29,807 bases of DNA from Clarias gariepinus (Eukaryota), in NCBI RefSeq assembly GCF_024256425.1, contig NC_071110.1, forward strand, positions 2,508,274-2,538,080. Direction: 5' to 3'. The position numbers were made by a program, and so were the translations under genes. The notes beneath the pieces are model-generated. The model was given only the letters and a program-made list of their open reading frames with translations, did not search any database and was not told the DNA's origin. Shown here one piece after another: positions 6,610-29,169 of the stretch. Numbering within the stretch: the stretch's first letter is position 1; every line of letters begins with the position of its first letter.

Positions 6610-7110
6610 AGGACTATCTTTACGCTGTACCTCAGACTTCAGACACTGCTCACAATTTTGCCATCTGCAGAAGTTCTCGGATGATTCTGCTGTCGTGGGC
6701 TGTATCAGGAGAGGCCGAGAGACTGAGTACTGGAGTGTTTTGTGAAGTGGTGTGAACTAAATCACCTGCAGCTCAATGTTTTAAAAAGAGCTGGTGGTTG
6801 ATTTTAGGAAGCAGAGGACCATCCCTAACCCCATAAACATCATGGGCAATAAGGTGGACGTTGTGGACAGCTACAAATACCTAAGTGTTCACATTGACAA
6901 TAAACTGGACTGGTCAAAGAACACTGCTGTTTACAAAAAAGGTCAGAGTCGCCTGTACTTTCTCAGAAGAATTGGGTCCTTTAATATATGCAGAACCATG
7001 CTTCAGATGTTCTACTATTCTGTGGTCTCCAGCATTATCTTCTCTGCTGTAGTCTGTTGGGGTAGCAGATTAATACCAGTGGCATTCAAACTCTATAACT
7101 CTTCCCCCTT
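6610..7110 (+). mobile_element. Non-LTR retrotransposon (L2/CR1-like) RT C-terminal fragment
   Basis: Translation reads KFSDDSAVVGCIRRGRETEY...VVDFRKQRTIPNPINIMGNKVDVVDSYKYLSVHIDNKLDWSKNTAVYKKGQSRLYFLRRIGSFNICRTMLQMFYYSVVSSIIFSAVVCWGS. This is the conserved FADDT...VDFR...LGV.I...L.W......KKAQQRL.FLR tail of fish LINE ORF2. It is interrupted by stops and truncated. Confidence 0.7.
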
Positions 7111-7600
7111 CATTTGGGAGCTGTCATGACAGCATTATCAATAGAGCTTTATCATGCCCTGATACATTGTGCAAAATTAGTATCACAATAATAATAACAT
7201 CATATGCAAAACCAATAATTATGCAAGATTATAAAAATCAAGTGCAATATCATACGGTGTGCAATATTAATATCACTATTACTCTCTATATGCAATATCA
7301 AATATTATGTGCAATATATATCCTGGGTGCAATAATATACATGTACAATACACAAAAGAGGCAATTCTGCACTTTTCTATACAATCAGTAGTGCTTTTAT
7401 TTATTTATATATATTTATTCTATTTATATCAGTTTTTGACATTATAGTACATTTTATTTTATTTTCTAATTTTTTTTATTTCCCATCCTATTGTATTTGT
7501 ATTTTTTAAATATGCAGCTACTGGAGAAACAATTTCCTTCGGGATTAATAACGACTTTTCTTATCTTATTTTTTGCTTTATCTTATTTTTTCTTATCTTA

Positions 7601-9670: not shown

Positions 9671-10385
9671 TCAGTAATAGTCAGAACAAAAATAGCAGAA
9701 CATCGTATAATTTCTTTTAGGCTTTCCTTGCTTTGAGGATTAGGGCAATTAAACCTTGTTTTATACTTGTCATAAATTCTTCCCTGTCTATTCACTCTTT
9801 TAATGCATTGATGAGTACATTTTCAATTCTTCCAAAAGGAAAAAAGGAGAAAAAAAGCAAAGCCAAAACCTTTTTAATCATCTTTTAGAATGTCTTTTCC
9901 AGTGATATGAAACAGATACCTAGAGCCTTTAGTGAAACTAACTTTCCTTTATTCATTTTCATATAACACAGGGATGTTCAGAAAATGGTTGCTTTCATGA
10001 AACAGAAAGTTTTGCTGCCACAGCCTCAATAAACTTTTCATTCTCTTTTATCATACCACTAATTTACCATAGAACCTTGCTTCTCTTGCTAGAAGATGCT
10101 GTTGTGGCTAAATGAGCAAAGCCCCACAACTACTGTACATTCCAAAATTCAAAGGAAATCGTTCCCTGTTTTGTCGAGATTGTTTTAACTGAAATATAAA
10201 TCTGGACTCTTAAGAAAAATCACATGAGGGCATGATGGTCAGGTGTCGATAAACATTTTTACATACAGTATAGTGTAAATGATAATGTAACCACAATAAA
10301 ATTACATTAGTATTACAGAATTTGGCACTGTTGCTTAGGGAAAAAATAAATCTGAAGCTCTAGTTATTTTCCCCCCAAAACCATT

Positions 10386-10912
10386 TCATTTATTATCACA
10401 TAACCTTGTAGTTGAGTTAGTACCCATACAGAACCCAGCATACAGAGGCTGAGTGAATGTGGTGCGCACTCTGTGGAGGAGCCTCATTGTGTAAGAGACA
10501 CTGTAGAAGGACAGAGTTCCAGCATTGTAATCTACATACACTCCTATTCTGGAGGACGCTGGACCTCGGAGCTCAGTCTCAATGCTGTTGTGCCGGAAAG
10601 ATACAGAGGAAGAAAAACACCTCAGACTCCAGGACTGACTGTTGAATCCAAACACACACTCATCACCCTGTCCTTTCCTGCTGATCCCTTGATATGAGAC
10701 TGATATTAACACACCATCACCGCTCCACTCCACCTCCCAGTAACAGCGTCCACACACACTCTCCTTACACAACACCTGAGACCAGGAGTCAAATCTCTTC
10801 GGATGATCAGAGTATTGCTGTCGTGTCCTAATACGTGTCACCGATCTGTTCTTCTCAGACAGAATGAGTTCATAATTTGCTGTTTTGGGATCCAGAGTCA
10901 GATAACGGAAAT
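10386..10912 (-). CDS. Orphan B30.2/PRY-SPRY exon (finTRIM-type terminal exon) with its own stop codon; no upstream RING or coiled-coil exons found
   Basis: The ORF reads ...FRYLTLDPKTANYELILSEKNRSVTRIRTRQQYSDHPKRFDSWSQVLCKESVCGRCYWEVEWSGDGVLISVSYQGISRKGQGDECVFGFNSQSWSLRCFSSSVSFRHNSIETELRGPASSRIGVYVDYNAGTLSFYSVSYTMRLLHRVRTTFTQPLYAGFCMGTNSTTRLCDNK*. It has the classical LDPNTA, CYWEVEW and LSF motifs. The acceptor ttttag|ATTTCC and its phase match those of exon 6 of the upstream ftr gene, to which it is about 75% identical. Confidence 0.7.
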
Positions 10913-11329
10913 CTAAAACAATAAAATGACCACAGGTTGGATTTAAATTTTTATAATAAATATGTGTGAGAGTGTACTCATGCTCTGTATAAAACACTTG
11001 CGATACGGGCTCTTAATCAGTACACCACACAGTACTGATCCATTTTGCACATCACAAATATGTTTTTTGCAGTCACTCTGCACATTCTGGACATTCGTTT
11101 ACACTAGTGGTCACTGCACAACTACACTTCCTGGTCATTAGTTAAATCACTCTATCACAAGTCACTTTAAATAAATCACTTTCGAGCATATTTGCACGCA
11201 CAAGACACTTTAAATATGTGGATTGCACAGCCCCTGGACATTACCATTTTTATTACCATTTATATCTAACTTTATTTCACACAAAAATTCCTAAAAATCT
11301 ACATCTACTTTGTACAGCTGTTTTTCTTA

Positions 11330-13489: not shown

Positions 13490-14050
13490 ATAGCGCTTTA
13501 TATGACGTAAAGCAACTTTACAGAACTAAACAGACATGCATTTGCATAAGGTTACAAAAAATAAGTAAAAAATACAGTTCTATAGTTTATTTGTCAACAA
13601 AACTTCAGGTTGTCTTACAAACACACAAATAGAAACAGAAACTGTTGTCTAAATAAAGACAGGCAATAGTATTGGAATCTACTGTTTTAGTTCAGACCTG
13701 GTTTGTTGATTCTTGCTGTTCCACAGGGACTGAATAGATTCATTTTTAAAAAAACATAAGATTTAGCAATAACACATCAGACAAAACATTCTATAGTTTA
13801 AACTATGTACTTAATTTCAAACTACCTAACAAAAACTATAAAATGTCCCCTATGCAGATGAAAGTAAAATAATAATGATAAGAACTAACACACGCAAATA
13901 TGCAGCTTCCAGCCGTGAATTCAAACTACAAGTGGAGAATAGACGAGCCAATCCAGAAACCAAGAATGTGCACACCTCCAGTTTCTGATTGGCTGGTATT
14001 GCCCCAATTTTAGTTTCTGGTTGGCTGGAACTGTGGCAGAGTTCTAGCGC
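13490..14050 (+). repeat. Interspersed repeat with CCAAT-like TTTCTGATTGGCTGG motifs (paired with 19930-20175)
   Basis: ...ggttacaaaaaa.aagt..ctatagt.t...caacaaaacttca.gttgtct.acaaacacacaaa...ttcaaacta.aagtggagaa.a..gagc.aatccag.a.caa.aatgtgc...ctc.agtttctgattggctggt.tt is shared by both copies. The motif occurs twice in this copy. Confidence 0.6.
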
Positions 14051-19018: not shown

Positions 19019-19780
19019 CTAGCTACTTTTCATTTCGGCCTTTTTAATTGCCTTGTCCAGTCTGTTCGTATCAAACACCTTCATGTTACAGCCCCAACAG
19101 ACCACAGCGTAAAAAATGACACTCGCCACAACGGTTCCATAAAACATCCGTAGAATGGTGTTACACCATTGGAGTAGGTGTATTATGGTGTCCTTTACTC
19201 CCATGAAAGGCTGATAGGCAAACTGAAGAGGGTCCAGAGAGGACTTCACCAGGGGACGAAGTGCATCCAGGATCAGTCTCTCCAACACCTTCATAATGTG
19301 CAATTTCAAAGCAACAGGCCTGTAGTCATTCTGGGCACAGGAACGTGATATTTTGGGGACCAATACAATACATGATTGTATTTCCACAATGCAGAGACTT
19401 TCTGTAGAGACAGACTTAAGGCTAAAGGGGTACTGGAGGACACCACAGAGTTGGGGAGCACAAGATTTCAGGACTCTGGGATTTATCTTGTCCGGACCAG
19501 CTTTACAGCTTTTGTAGGGCTGAGCTTGCTTAGGCCATATTTGACCTGATCCACTGAGATATTGAATGAGGGGAGTGCAGGAGTAGTGAATGTTTTTGTG
19601 TAGGGGAGGACATGGGAGCAGGAAGGTGGATTGGGGCTGAAGCTGGGGAAAGTGTGAGACATGGGGACATCAAATCTATTAAAGAAAGTGTTGAGATTGT
19701 TTGCAAATTCCACATTCCCCTCAATAGCCTTGCAGCTTGTCTTATAGCCATGGTGCTCCCCATGCCCCTCCACACCTCTC
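19019..19780 (-). mobile_element. L2/CR1-like LINE RT fragment with an internal deletion
   Basis: ORF 19483-19773 ends LSPTKAVKLVRTR (the ...KAAGPDGI.PR.LK region). ORF 19019-19387 reads IVLVPKISRSCAQNDYRPVALKLHIMKVLERLILDALRPLVKSSLDPLQFAYQPFMGVKDTIIHLLQ joined directly to ...FYGTVVASVIFYAVVCWG...LDKAIKKA. The RT N-terminal and C-terminal motifs are therefore juxtaposed and the core is missing. Confidence 0.7.
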
Positions 19781-19929: not shown

Positions 19930-20175
19930 TATTCATAAGGTTAACAGATTTAATTTGCACACGGTTACAAAAAAAAAGTTTCTATAGTCTTCAACAAAAC
20001 TTCACGTTGTCTCACAAACACACAAACAAAAATATAAATTTTGTCTGAACAAAACAGGCATGTTTAATCAAGAATTCAAACTAGAAGTGGAGAACAACAG
20101 AGCTAATCCAGGAGCAAAAAATGTGCCTGCCTCTAGTTTCTGATTGGCTGGTGTTCACTAGGGAAGTGACGCTGG
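19930..20175 (+). repeat. Second copy of the 13490-14050 repeat, ending about 20 bp from the ftr exon 2 donor
   Basis: See 13490-14050. It contains one TTTCTGATTGGCTGG motif (20137-20151). Confidence 0.6.
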
Positions 20176-20292: not shown

Positions 20293-21399
20293 CTGAGAAA
20301 AAAGACATACATTTTATTAATTCTATGTTAAGGGCTAACTGTGTGAATATTAACTTTAGGTACAGATTTACACTTCCTGTAACTTCATATAACTCCCCAT
20401 CTCTTTCTTCCTGCACTACAGATGAAGGTTTTATATTATGGGGCTTTCCTCAGTTCATACCCTGCATCAGACAAAGAGTTTTTCAGCTATCAGTACTCAC
20501 CAATCTCTGTTTGATATCCTTGATATACATTATGAGCAGCTACTGTTTTTTTTATAGCTATGCACGCCTGTTTGGGCAACAATATTTAATATGACAGCTG
20601 TGGTTTCCACGCATTAGTTTCAATCAGTTTATCAACTGACTACCATCACTATTTCAAATAAACCCTATTGGCTAATTGTTATTGATAAATCTTGCTATCA
20701 AGACTTTTAGATGTATAACCGCATATGACATTAGGTAATTAAATTTTAACAACAAAAACAACAGTCAATTGTTATTTTAAGATAGTTCTTGCAAGAAAAG
20801 TATTGGGTCAAGTGCATTTTTAAAACCCATCAATGATGAAACTGTCTCTCATGAAGACCTTCCCAGGAAAACAAGACCAAAACTGAGCTCTGCTGCAGAG
20901 GAGAAGTTCATTTAGAGTCACCAGCCTCAGAAATCACCAATTAACAACCAGCACCTCAGATTAGAGCCGTTATGAAGCTTTACAGAGCAGAAGGAGCAGA
21001 TAAACATCTCAAAATCAACTTTTCAAATAAGATTATTGTTTATAAATTGTCTCCTGTTTAAAGGATATATTTTGGATATTTTGGTGTGTCCAAACTTTCA
21101 AACTTTTGACAGAGGTGCTACCACAGTTGTAAAATGGGAATAAATTCAGTGATAATCACTATTGGCCTCCATGGTCCTATAAGGGAGCACCATTAGAGGT
21201 CGCTGTTTGTCATTTGTAGTTTTTGTTGGCTGACTCAGTTTCCCAGAAGGCACGTCGGTCAGGTGATGCGAGTGCACACCTGAGCTGAGGTAGCCATTAG
21301 TCCATCTACAAAATAGCTGTTTAGTCTGGGAAACTGGGTCGAGCATTATCATTTACACGACTGTCATTTATGTGGGCATTTTGTGTTGTTTTTGTTAAG

Positions 21400-22557: not shown

Positions 22558-23139
22558 CTGTTTTTCAGTCCTTTCTGCTTTAGTTGAAACCGTCTCATGG
22601 CCTTTGTGTTCATCCATCGTACACAAGTAACAGATGAAGCTTTGGTCAGTACGACAGTAGATCTCGATCGGTTTGTCATGCTGAAAGCAGATCTTCTCTT
22701 GGAGCTCACAGGCTTCCACTAACTTGTGCTTCTTAAAGGCAGGAGACTGATAGTGAGGTTGAAGATGGTCTTTACAATAGGATGCCTGACACACCAGACA
22801 GGAATTAACAGCTTTGCGTTTTCTCCCGGGGCAGGAATCACACTCCACATCTCCAGGTCCAGCGTAACAGTGAGCAGGAGAAGCAGGTTGGACTTCAGAC
22901 TTCTTCAGTTTCTCCACCACTTCAGCCAGCATGGTGTTCCTGCGTAGAACAGGTCTTGGAGTGAAAGTCTCTCTACACTGAGGACAGCTGTAGACACCCT
23001 TTACATCCTCACAATCCCAAAAGTCATTAATACACACCTTACAGAAACTGTGGCCACAGGAAGTAGAAACTGGATCTTTTAGGAGGTCCAGACACACTGG
23101 ACAGCTAAACTGATACTGATCGGTTGAAATACCTGCCAT
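22558..23139 (-). CDS. finTRIM gene exon 1: RING (C3HC4) + B-box1 + B-box2; initiator ATG at 23139
   Basis: MAGISTDQYQFSCPVCLDLLKDPVSTSCGHSFCKVCINDFWDCEDVKGVYSCPQCRETFTPRPVLRRNTMLAEVVEKLKKSEVQPASPAHCYAGPGDVECDSCPGRKRKAVNSCLVCQASYCKDHLQPHYQSPAFKKHKLVEACELQEKICFQHDKPIEIYCRTDQSFICYLCTMDEHKGHETVSTKAERTEKQ | gtgaga donor. The exon is 194 codons. The listed ORF starts 6 codons upstream at a GTG. The first in-frame ATG gives MAGIS..., which matches ftr N-termini. Confidence 0.8.
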
Positions 23140-23164
23140 TTTGCAGGAGTCATACACACACAGG

Positions 23165-23182
23165 GAGAGAGAGAGAGAGAAA
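23165..23182. repeat. (GA)n microsatellite in the proximal promoter / 5' leader
   Basis: gagagagagagagagaga, between the ISRE and the ATG. Confidence 0.85.
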
Positions 23183-23189
23183 GGTTGGC

Positions 23190-23212
23190 TGAGTTTCGTT
23201 TTCTGGGAAAAG
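23190..23212 (-). promoter_or_regulatory. ISRE overlapping a GAS site, about 55-75 bp upstream of the ftr start codon
   Basis: The sense (minus) strand reads CTTTTCCCAGAAAACGAAACTC. It contains GAAAACGAAACT (ISRE consensus GAAANNGAAACT) and TTCCCAGAA (GAS consensus TTCNNNGAA). Confidence 0.55.
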
Positions 23213-23365
23213 AGCCTAGTTCAGTTTGTGGTGTCAGAGATAGAGTGGGTGTGGCTTTAAAGAGACAGAATTTTTGTAGTGTAAATCATTTTCACTGATA
23301 TAAATATTTATATAAATTGAATTTGGCTTTATACAAAGATATTGCATAGTTTAATGTATGTGTAT

Positions 23366-23371
<6 letters not shown>

Positions 23372-23436
<65 letters not shown>
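23372..23436. repeat. (TA)32 microsatellite
   Basis: Perfect TA dinucleotide run. It abuts the MITE's left TIR. Confidence 0.9.
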
Positions 23437-23444
<8 letters not shown>

Positions 23445-23786
23445 GTGGTGTGAAAAACTATTTGCCCCCTTCCTGATTTCTTATTCTTTTGCATGTTTGT
23501 CACACTTAAATGTTTCTGATCATCAAAAACCGTTAACTATTAGTCAAAGATAACATAATTGAACACAATATGCAGTTTTTAAATGAAGGTTTACGTTATT
23601 AAGGGACTTTTTTTCTCCCTAAATAATAAAAACCGTCATTTAAAAACTGCATTTTGTGTTTACTTGTGTTATCTTTAACTAATAGTTAAATGTGTTTGAT
23701 GATCAGAAACATTTAAGTGTGACAAACATGCAAAAGAATAAGAAATCAGGAAGGGGGCAAATAGTTTTTCACACCACTGTGTGTGT
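23437..23786. mobile_element. MITE-like hairpin element with ~90-bp Tc1-type TIRs (CACACACAGTGGTGTGAAAAACTATTTGCCCCCTTCCTGATTTC...)
   Basis: The left end cacacacagtggtgtgaaaaactatttgcccccttcctgatttcttattcttttgcatgtttgtcacacttaaatgtttctgatcatcaaa is the near-perfect reverse complement of the right end ...tgatgatcagaaacatttaagtgtgacaaacatgcaaaagaataagaaatcaggaagggggcaaatagtttttcacaccactgtgtgtg. The ~160-bp core is itself partly palindromic. The element has no ORF and is flanked by TA repeats on both sides. Confidence 0.7.
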
Positions 23787-25129
23787 AAAATATATATATA
23801 TCTATCTCTATCTCTATCTCACAGGACTGTTTATGCATAAAAAAATAGATGGTGCTGACTTATTTAACCACACAATTGACACATTCAATTCACAAAAAGT
23901 TGAAATAAATAAAATAAAAACAAATGTACAAAGCAGTTTATAATCAAGTCAGTATTTTTTATTAGATATATGAGGGAACAAATAAGCAAAACTCTACAAG
24001 AGACAGAAGAACCATCAAAAGACACTTGGCTAAATCGGACCTTTGTAGTCTGACTATTGTACAGTAAATCTTGCTAATAAACAACTATAGAATGATGGTG
24101 TTTAAATGGGCCACATTACACCTGTGCTTTCTACCTGTCTATGTTGGATTTACAGTATTTGGTTTAGTAAGAAAAGTAGAACTTATCCTAATATAAAAAG
24201 AGTAAATAAAATGGATTTCAAAATGATTTTTACATTTAAATTTAAATAATTGTTTGTCTAATTGTTAGCACTTTTATTGTTACAACATCACATTATATTA
24301 GGCACCGAGATGTCAGAAATGTCTTTGCTAAAACATGGAACATATTTTATTTTATGTACCTACTGTACTTATGATGTCCAAAAAGTACTTCAATTAAACA
24401 TTATATCAAATAACACTATTTTCCTTACAATAACATTCTGCTATACAGATGTGGCCACGTTTTTTCCCGTGGAAGTCTGCAATTCGTCTCGCTGAGTGCC
24501 GCTCAATCCCGCAAGCACCATTTTATGATTTAAATAAATGTGCTTTACAGAATATCAGATGGCGCATGGAATGACTTTATCTAAAAGCCAGACCAAATTG
24601 TTCCTTCACTGCTTTCAATTCGGTTGTTAATTATGCCTCTACTGTAGATACGGTACATACATAAAGTATCTGATAAATTACACTTTAAAAAATAAAACTG
24701 TGCTGTACTAAATTTTTTTGGCGAATCATTTTTACACTTAAAAATATTGAGTATATATAAAAGTTCTCATGTAAAATCATGTCAAATATACACCATGAAG
24801 TACAAGTCAGTAAAAAAATTAAGTAGACCTGAATAACTCTATTTAGTACAATGATGTACAAAATTAAGTAAATGTAATGAAAATCAGAAGTTAATGCAAT
24901 GGTTACCCCAAGTGAAAATGAGTAAAATAATTGAGTAGATATAATTGAAATGCAAGATAGAAGAAACTGAAAATTTTAATATTATTTAACAAACAAATGT
25001 GCTAAATTTACTAAATATTTTAACTGAATTTATTTTATACTGCTTTAACACAGAATTATTATGTTACACTTATTAAAAAAAAAAAAAAAACTATATTCAG
25101 CCTTTACTCAAGAGGTATTTTTATTCAGG

Positions 25130-27839: not shown

Positions 27840-29169
27840 CAGTTGTGTTTAAAAGAATAGCAGTGTGTTAAAAAAGTGAGTAAAGCTCCATATCCATATA
27901 ATAACTTTTCATTTAAATCACACAAATGCATTGGAAACCCTGCACATTCTATTCTGAATTACAACATGAAGAAAAATGTGCTAAATGAATAATTAGTTCA
28001 CAAAAAGTAAAGAAAAACAAATATTGGTCTGTTTAAAAAAATAGCAGTGTCATTATTCATCTTTACAAAGTGATGAATTTACAGTTTAAACAAAAATGCT
28101 TGAAGTTTAATCTTTCTTGTGCATCTCTGAACTAATATTTAGTTGTATAACCATGGTTTTCATTTTTTGTCTCAGACACAGCATTTTTAATGTCAGCCCA
28201 GAAGTTTTCTATTGGATTAGGGTCTGGGAATTAGGCTGGCCACTCCATAACGTCAATCTTGTTGGTCTGGAACCATGATGCTGCTCGCTTACTGGTGTGT
28301 TTGGGGTCGTTGTCTTGTTAAAACACCAATTTCAAGGGCATTTCCTTTTCGGCATAAGGCAACATGACCTCTTTAGGTATTCCGAGGTACTCAAATTGAT
28401 CCATGATCCCTGAAATGTAATAAATAGGCCCAACACCATAGTACGAGAAGCATCCCCATATCATGATGCTTGTGCCTCAATGCTTTACTGTCTTCACAGT
28501 GTACTGTGGTTTAAACTCAGCGTTTGGGGGCCTGACAAACTGTCTGCAGCCTCTAGACCCAAAAAGGACAAGCTTGCTTTTATCAGTCCACAAAATATTG
28601 CGCAATTTCTCTTTAGGCCAGTCAATGTGTTTTTTGGCGAACTGTAACCTCTTCAGCACGTCTTTTTTTTTAAAATGTGACTTTACGGGGGCTTCTTGCT
28701 GATAGCCTTCTGGTTTTGGTCTCCATTTTAGAGCATTTAATATCATTTTAGCAAAGCAGTCTATTATTTCCTGCACTTCTTTGTATGTTTTCCCATCTCT
28801 AATCAACTTTTGAATCAAAGTACGCTGTTCTCCAAGACAATGTCTAAAACGACCCATTTTATTTTTTAGAGAGAAATGCACAGAACAACCTTTTCTGCAT
28901 TTATCCTTGAATTTTTTCATCCTTGAATACACCAGTTTTTCACAGAATAATTTACCTCTCTAATTAAACTTCACACTATTATTTTGAACACGACCCTTTT
29001 CGATTAATGATTTAATTACACAGAATCAGGTGCAGGTTGGGCCTGTTGGTTTCTATTACTCCACTACACCTACAAGTAAAATATTTACCAGGAAGAAATA
29101 TAATTTCTCCCAAAAACAATTATTGATTTGTTTACTGATGTTGGACTGCTATTATTTTGAACACAACTG
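27840..29169 (-). mobile_element. Non-autonomous Tc1-like DNA transposon (1.33 kb) with intact TIRs, flanking TA, and a degraded transposase
   Basis: The left end TA|CAGTTGTGTTTAAAAGAATAGCAGTG matches the right end CACTGCTATTATTTTGAACACAACTG|TA as an inverted repeat. ORF 28477-28932 (minus) reads ...GEQRTLIQKLIRDGKTYKEVQEIIDC...KKKDVLKRLQFAKKHIDWPKEKLRNILWTDKSKLVLFGSRG, the Tc1 HTH and first D region. The remainder is frameshifted (...LDVMEWP..SPDLNPIENFW... at 28150-28270) and the C-terminus is truncated. Confidence 0.75.

Follow-up and report, generated by a model that had tools for sequence, protein, structure and literature searches.

A probable ISRE overlapped by a copy-specific GAS-like palindrome upstream of a catfish-type finTRIM gene

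Introduction

Does the motif just upstream of the finTRIM (ftr) start codon in the stretch of DNA analysed here (29,807 nt; hereafter the window) act as an interferon switch, and do both of its halves take part? [quoted passage not shown] For an IFN-inducible TRIM gene, an upstream ISRE, perhaps joined by a GAS, is the expected arrangement. The appeal to the known inducibility of finTRIMs agrees with what is documented for the family: trout finTRIMs increase more than 10-fold in response to virus or poly(I:C) (PMC2657112), IFNphi1 induces over 20 zebrafish ftr genes (10.1101/693333), and the 5′ flank of zebrafish ftr42, with putative ISREs, supports a reporter activated by SVCV, poly(I:C), IRF3 and IRF7 (PMC10973201). 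The basal genes ftr82-84 are not IFN-inducible (10.1101/693333).

Overlapping ISRE/GAS composites are an established class that includes BST2, IFI35, TAP1 and HLA-G (PMC5985295, Table 1; PMC10287828), and elements with both sites switch between ISGF3, GAF and IRF1 (PMC10287828). STAT1 signalling by IFN-gamma through TTCN(2-4)GAA reporters is documented in fish (PMC4215117).

Experimental procedures

Positions are those of the window or, with a minus sign, are counted from the A of the ftr start codon. The ISRE consensus was AGTTTCN2TTTCN, equivalent to (N)GAAANNGAAACT (PMC5985295). Small ISRE and GAS PWMs were built from the table of validated human sites in the same paper, and both strands were scanned. 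An ISRE-consensus match inside a dispersed repeat of the window (13632-13643) was used as an internal negative control. The sequence GACAACGACACT is an altered (mutant) form of the ISRE GAAAACGAAACT.

Exons 2-6 of the gene were found with relatives as guides and have canonical AG/GT boundaries. The genomic loci of ten relatives were fetched and the 300 nt 5′ of each exon-1 ATG were extracted. The loci are from Ameiurus (L001), Tachysurus vachellii (L002), Pangasianodon gigas (L003), Hemibagrus (L004), Neoarius (L005), the characiform Metynnis hypsauchen (L006, with copies a, b and c) and Silurus (L007); the other loci are from a gymnotiform, an eel (Conger) and a salmonid (Salvelinus). Twelve homologous ftr promoters were aligned with MAFFT (alignment A1).

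Results

The gene and the motif both lie on the minus strand, on which the sense context reads CTCTTTAAAGCCACACCCACTCTATCTCTGACACCACAAACTGAACTAGGCTCTTTTCCCAGAAAACGAAACTCAGCCAACCTTTCTCTCTCTCTCTCTCCCTGTGTGTGTATGACTCCTGCAAAATGGCAGGT. The 22-mer of the original prediction, CTTTTCCCAGAAAACGAAACTC, was located at 23212-23191 (minus strand) and the composite TTCCCAGAAAACGAAACT at 23209-23192 (minus strand). The ISRE core, GAAAACGAAACT, spans 23192-23203 (minus strand), which places it at -64 to -53 relative to the ATG (A at 23139), and matches the consensus exactly. The plus strand over it reads AGTTTCGTTTTC(T), which fits AGTTTCN2TTTCN, and AGTTTCGTTTTCT (plus strand, 23192-23204) agrees with GAAANNGAAACT at 12 of 12 positions. 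The GAS-like palindrome TTTCCCAGAAA (23200-23210, minus strand) shares GAA(A) with the ISRE; its core, TTCCCAGAA (23209-23201, -70 to -62), overlaps the ISRE by the three nucleotides GAA at 23201-23203. By this sharing of nucleotides the site, 53-70 nt 5′ of the ATG, resembles the overlapping composites of the BST2/IFI35/TAP1 type. The predicted pair is present, and its predicted distance of 55-75 bp from the ATG is about right, with the motifs at -70 to -53. The accompanying tract, given as (GA)9, is in fact (GA)8; it lies at 23165-23180, between the ISRE and the ATG, and reads GA only on the plus strand, whereas along the gene it is (TC)8.

Taken alone, the quality of the motif is no more than mildly beyond chance. 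Two copies of the string GAAANNGAAACT are present in the window, where 0.13 would be expected; the exact composite TTCNNNGAAANNGAAACT is present there once, and in none of 100 dinucleotide-preserving shuffles. A PWM scan, which the original prediction had proposed as a check, placed the promoter site as the top ISRE match and the top GAS match of the window with the human-derived matrices, but an equal or better score arose somewhere in 18 of 100 shuffled windows for the ISRE and in 4-10 of 100 for the GAS; since comparable scores appear in shuffled DNA at these rates, the PWM score was rejected as stand-alone proof. The ISRE-consensus match used as a control, GAAACAGAAACT (13632-13643, plus strand), has a near-equal PWM score; it is part of a dispersed repeat that recurs as a 75% copy at 19953-20060, and is without positional support. 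With motif quality this close to chance, position and conservation carry the case.

The coding sequence behind the motif is that of an intact finTRIM gene. Exon 1 (22558-23139, minus strand, 582 nt) begins with the start codon at 23139-23137, encodes a RING and two B-boxes and ends at the donor CAG/gtgaga. It is followed on the same strand by exon 2 (20292-20197, 96 nt), exon 3 (16721-16488, 234 nt), exon 4 (16299-16140, 160 nt), exon 5 (15477-15421, 57 nt) and exon 6 (14811-14288, 524 nt), the last encoding the PRY/SPRY. The six joined exons give an ORF of 550 aa with no stops, in which Pfam detects zf-C3HC4_4, zf-B_box, TRIM_CC, PRY and SPRY domains; the match of B-box 1 is ANCHR-like. The exon plan of 582/96/234/160/57/524 nt agrees with that of zebrafish ftr genes, in which an RBB exon of 555-594 nt is followed by exons of 96, 234, 154, 60 and about 545 nt (PMC2657112). 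The best protein matches are all from teleosts, mostly catfish, at up to 82% identity, and carry the names TRIM25-like, finTRIM family member and fish virus induced TRIM protein. The label 'ftr', which denotes a teleost-specific clade near TRIM16/TRIM25, is reasonable on these grounds (domains, exon plan and best matches). The matches also make a siluriform, with an ftr copy that the database lacks, the probable source of the window.

No other 12-nt stretch within the upstream 160 nt of the 12 promoters is as conserved in alignment A1 as the ISRE. The sequence GAAAACGAAACT is identical at 12 of 12 positions in P. gigas, Hemibagrus, Neoarius and Metynnis copy L006a, amid flanks of about 25-60% identity; between the window and L006a the flanks are 29% (5′) and 38% (3′) identical. 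The ISRE of Ameiurus is one base off (...GAAAGT). In the window lineage the 13 nt directly 5′ of the ISRE have taken four substitutions and a 2-nt deletion, and the 12 positions of the ISRE none. The placement is equally regular. Across 256 kb (the window and the ten fish loci) TTCNNNGAAANNGAAA is matched six times, each time in sense orientation and 50-90 nt 5′ of the ATG of an ftr exon 1. The five relatives concerned (L001, L003, L004, L005 and L006a) have the ISRE at this distance and orientation and share with the window the order of a CACCC-type box, (TTCNNNGAA)AAACGAAACT, a CT tract and GTGCAGGAAAATGG. The catfish have in common the cassette CTCTTTAAAGCCACACCCACTCT ... ACCAGGAAGTTCATTTCAGAGAAAACGAAACT ... 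(CT)n ... GTGCAGGAAAATGG, and a CT microsatellite of variable length stands at the place of the (TC)8 tract in all catfish relatives. These patterns point to purifying selection on the ISRE at exactly the positions that define its consensus, and it is mainly because of this signature that we accept the ISRE as functional.

Not every copy has kept the element. Eroded forms are found in Metynnis copies L006b and L006c (GTAACTGAAACT and GTAATTGAAACT), in Silurus and in the gymnotiform, Conger and Salvelinus genes. The three Metynnis promoters belong to tandem ftr paralogues (L006:680-848, 9860-10030 and 20835-21005); the ISRE is perfect in one of them and eroded in the other two. Recognisable remnants of the cassette are present in the eel and salmonid ftr genes.

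In the T. vachellii locus, where two ftr copies stand in tandem, a (CGAACGAACGAACCAT)n minisatellite occupies the place of the ISRE in both (L002:9850-9960 and L002:17560-17690) and is followed by CT/CA repeats; the array may be an expansion seeded from the ACGAAAC core. The annotation gives at least one of the pair (P0003, 209 aa) as a short gene with RING and B-box only.

The GAS half has a different history. Relatives with an intact ISRE all read TTCAGAGAA where the window copy reads TTCCCAGAA (L001, L003, L004, L005 and L006a were compared). The sequence TTCAGAGAA fits TTCN3GAA formally and is a poor STAT1 site. Its AGA spacer is as invariant in the relatives as the half-sites, which is not the pattern of a GAS, where the half-sites are kept and the spacer is free. 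The CCA spacer, and with it the strong GAS TTTCCCAGAAA, was seen in the window copy alone among the promoters compared. The core TTCCCAGAA has one optimal half (TTCC), short of the full optimum TTCCNGGAA, and the 11-mer TTTCCCAGAAA is the GAS listed for human BST2 and IRF9 (PMC5985295, Table 1). The comparison indicates that the strong GAS is a derived, copy-specific feature, which may have arisen by adaptive gain of a STAT input or by drift in a visibly changing flank. With a spacer as conserved as the half-sites in the relatives, conservation does not back a STAT1/IFN-gamma input, which nevertheless stays plausible given that human BST2 and IRF9 have the same 11-mer as their GAS. Of the proposed type I/II logic, therefore, the conserved ISRE stands and the GAS is a good STAT site by its sequence, but the conservation signature of a GAS is missing.

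Upstream of the motif lies a conserved block (...CTCTTTAAAGCCACACCCACTCT..., 23236-23265, minus strand) with a TATA-like TTTAAAG at 23261-23255 (-122 to -116) and the CACCC box CCACACCC at 23254-23247. The block is identical at 29 of 30 positions to Ameiurus L001:3835-3864 and at 24 of 24 to P. gigas L003:9841-9864. Silurus has TATAAAA at the place aligned to TTTAAAG, and all three Metynnis copies have a CCAAT-type box in place of the TATA-like box of the catfish. As the ISRE follows 45-60 nt 3′ of the TATA-like/CACCC block, it may be situated in the 5′ leader: if TTTAAAG is a TATA element, transcription would start near -90, with the ISRE about 20-40 nt inside the leader and an upstream ATG transcribed. 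A TSS within the (TC)8 tract or 3′ of it is the alternative, and would make the leader shorter than 50 nt. In trout, the position of a RACE primer implies a leader of at least 16 nt (PMC2657112).

The upstream ATG (23151-23153, minus strand) is in a weak context and opens a uORF of 24 codons that runs, out of frame, across the main ATG to about 23079. This upstream ATG is absent from the relatives, which read GTGAGTGCAGG there, and is of consequence only with a TSS 5′ of it. The relatives also have (CT)nCAG...GTGCAGGAAAATG and GTGCAG/G before the ATG, so that CAG or GCAGG could serve as an acceptor, and the annotated Hemibagrus model P0006 splices at (CT)nCAG just before the ATG. The window copy, in contrast, lacks an AG acceptor from the (TC)8 tract to the ATG; the sole AG after the ISRE (CTCAG/CC) follows a purine-rich stretch. 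Two annotated models from relatives, P0035 and P0044, which like P0006 are predictions, read through the motif in frame (FQRKQNSE and RENETQ), as a TSS farther upstream would allow. The N-terminal extensions of P0035, P0044 and P0006 look like annotation artefacts, yet they hint at transcription through the motif. The original prediction had offered a very short 5′ UTR or an unannotated upstream non-coding exon. This choice is incomplete: an ISRE within a leader that starts at the TATA-like/CACCC block is at least as likely as either. The non-coding exon is unlikely for the window copy, since it has no AG from (TC)8 to the ATG, unlike its relatives.

On its 5′ side the unique proximal promoter, of about 230 bp, is bounded by (TA)33 (23371-23436) and then a foldback MITE, inserted about 300 nt from the ATG. 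The arms of the MITE (23435-23606 and 23616-23787) are 172 nt long and 92% complementary, with the Tc1-like ends CAGTGGTGTGAAAAAC.... Both elements begin more than 160 nt farther 5′ than the motif region. A transposable-element origin of the motif was rejected, as no further copy of the segment 23140-23300 was found in the window or, within the loci, outside ftr 5′ ends. A divergent second gene sharing the motif was likewise rejected: no coding evidence was found on the plus strand 5′ of the motif, and the exon at 10389-10997 lies downstream.

An ETS-like ACCAGGAAGT stands directly 5′ of the ISRE position at L001:3917-3926, in L003, L004 and L005, and at L008:about 17215, L009:about 9905 and L010:about 9915. 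It has been kept from eel and salmonid to catfish, and is lost in the window copy (CTAG--GC, about 23215-23225) and in Metynnis. Either the loss of the ETS-like site or the gain of the upstream ATG in the window copy could signal regulatory decay.

Discussion

We regard GAAAACGAAACT at -64/-53 as probably a functional ISRE of an intact finTRIM gene; it would very probably be the actual switch for the gene during virus infection. The sequence, position and conservation of the element and the integrity of the gene were established here; factor binding, inducibility and the TSS are inferred. The mechanism proposed on the basis of the established JAK-STAT/IRF pathway is as follows. On virus sensing or exposure to type I IFN, ISGF3 (STAT1-STAT2-IRF9) and/or IRF1, IRF3 or IRF7 would bind GAAAACGAAACT, and the bound factors, together with a basal CACCC/TATA-like module, would raise ftr transcription from the compact promoter of about 230 bp. 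The ISRE would have been inherited with the gene, as suggested by a cassette at equal distance and orientation in ftr paralogues and orthologues of Siluriformes and a characiform, and by eroded versions of it in the gymnotiform, eel and salmonid. In the window copy two substitutions (AGA to CCA) would have turned the ancestral weak TTCAGAGAA into the STAT site TTTCCCAGAAA, whose 3′ half-site is shared with the ISRE. Whether this step added an IFN-gamma/STAT1-homodimer input is a tentative matter, and we lean slightly against it. If it did, binding of the STAT1 homodimer and of ISGF3 or an IRF would probably alternate, because the sites overlap in the shared half-site; an alternation of this kind has been put forward for overlapping composites.

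We consider it evenly balanced whether the ISRE is functional and the GAS-like palindrome incidental, the CCA spacer being neutral drift in a freely evolving flank. The ISRE already supplies a GAA half-site, so a TTC six bases upstream suffices for a palindrome; TTCNNNGAA is a common string, found at 11 sites in the 29.8 kb, and by calculation about 44% of random spacers would supply one or both optimal halves (a C in position 4, a G in position 6). The relatives moreover carry the poor STAT1 site TTCAGAGAA with an invariant spacer, and the flank of the window copy shows its four substitutions and deletion beside an unchanged ISRE. Against drift, TTTCCCAGAAA is the best GAS PWM match of the window and is identical to the GAS of human IRF9 and to that of BST2, which also overlaps an ISRE (PMC5985295), and fish STAT1 signals through reporters of the TTCN(2-4)GAA type (PMC4215117).

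The remaining two explanations would deny the ISRE its role. A random match or decaying remnant, in a gene that is silent or constitutive and free of IFN control, is very improbable. ISRE-like strings do arise in AT-rich fish DNA, the window copy is without the conserved ETS-like site and has an upstream ATG, the ISRE is clearly eroded in paralogues of Metynnis (L006b and L006c), T. vachellii (L002) and Silurus (L007), and ftr82-84 show that not every ftr gene is IFN-inducible; yet the ISRE is intact at 12 of 12 positions beside a diverged flank, its position and orientation recur in five other promoters from two fish orders, and the coding sequence is intact across six exons. Conservation of the block as leader or core promoter, with a role in RNA or initiation to which the likeness to an ISRE would be secondary, is highly improbable. 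With the TATA-like/CACCC block 45-60 nt 5′, a TATA-directed start would fall upstream of the motif, and P0035 and P0044 read through it. A site just downstream of a TSS may nonetheless function as an ISRE, the most conserved stretch comprises exactly the 12 specified positions of a transcription-factor consensus, and the finTRIM family is IFN-inducible.

Among the closest known counterparts is human BST2 (tetherin), in whose proximal promoter the ISRE AGTTTCAGTTTCC overlaps the same GAS 11-mer, TTTCCCAGAAA, through one shared TTTC/GAAA half-site (PMC5985295). BST2 is a mammalian gene of an unrelated family, in which the function of the site has been studied; the central triplet is also in the opposite orientation relative to the ISRE, with ...TTTC-CCA-GAAA after the ISRE in BST2 and ...TTTC-TGG-GAAA on the plus strand of the window. 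An ISRE and a GAS that are close or overlapping in the proximal promoter are likewise found in GBP1, IFI35, TAP1, HLA-G, IRF9, STAT1/2 and TRIM69, the last being a TRIM gene. In these composite ISGs both sites have ChIP-seq or mutagenesis behind them, while the evolutionary support gathered here is for the ISRE only. Zebrafish ftr42 and crucian carp FTRCA1 belong to the same gene family and have 5′ flanks with putative ISREs; they are cyprinid genes, likened here by description and not by motif sequence or position, and no GAS is reported for them (PMC10973201).

What appears to be new is a cassette co-duplicated with ftr across at least two otophysan orders, with instructive differences between paralogues and a BST2-like overlapping GAS. 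The ISRE is the likely cis-element behind the virus and IFN inducibility of finTRIMs, here for a catfish-type ftr gene, and would have been inherited through the expansion of the ftr family and not newly acquired, for example from a transposon. The paralogue series (ISRE perfect, eroded or replaced; ETS-like site present or absent; GAS weak or strong) could account for the restriction of ISG status to some ftr genes. The understanding of IFN signalling is unchanged by these results; their value lies in annotation and as a guide to the design of promoter reporters.

A broader scenario, rather unlikely as a whole, can be put together from the same material. An old ftr cassette of CACCC box, ETS-like site, ISRE and CT tract would predate the split of Siluriformes and Characiformes and would have been copied at each duplication. 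Edits within about 30 bp of individual paralogues (erosion of the ISRE, replacement by (CGAA)n, loss of the ETS-like site, changes of spacer) would determine whether a copy responds to type I IFN or to IFN-gamma, or does not respond at all. On this view the window copy would be an instance of regulatory neofunctionalisation, in which the ETS-like site was lost, two substitutions converged on the BST2-type ISRE/GAS TTTCCCAGAAA and a STAT1-homodimer input was gained, with the ISRE perhaps in the leader.

The window holds a second intact PRY/SPRY (B30.2) exon, at 10389-10997 (minus strand), whose protein is 69% identical to that of ftr exon 6. No other ftr exons were found near it, and it is possibly an orphan duplicate or an alternative 3′ exon. 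The introns of the ftr gene are rich in transposable elements. The ORFs at 19019-19773 (minus strand), 6794-7129 (plus strand) and 28477-28932 (minus strand) comprise reverse-transcriptase-like fragments, one of them in ftr intron 2, and an ORF that to the eye resembles a Tc1-type transposase.
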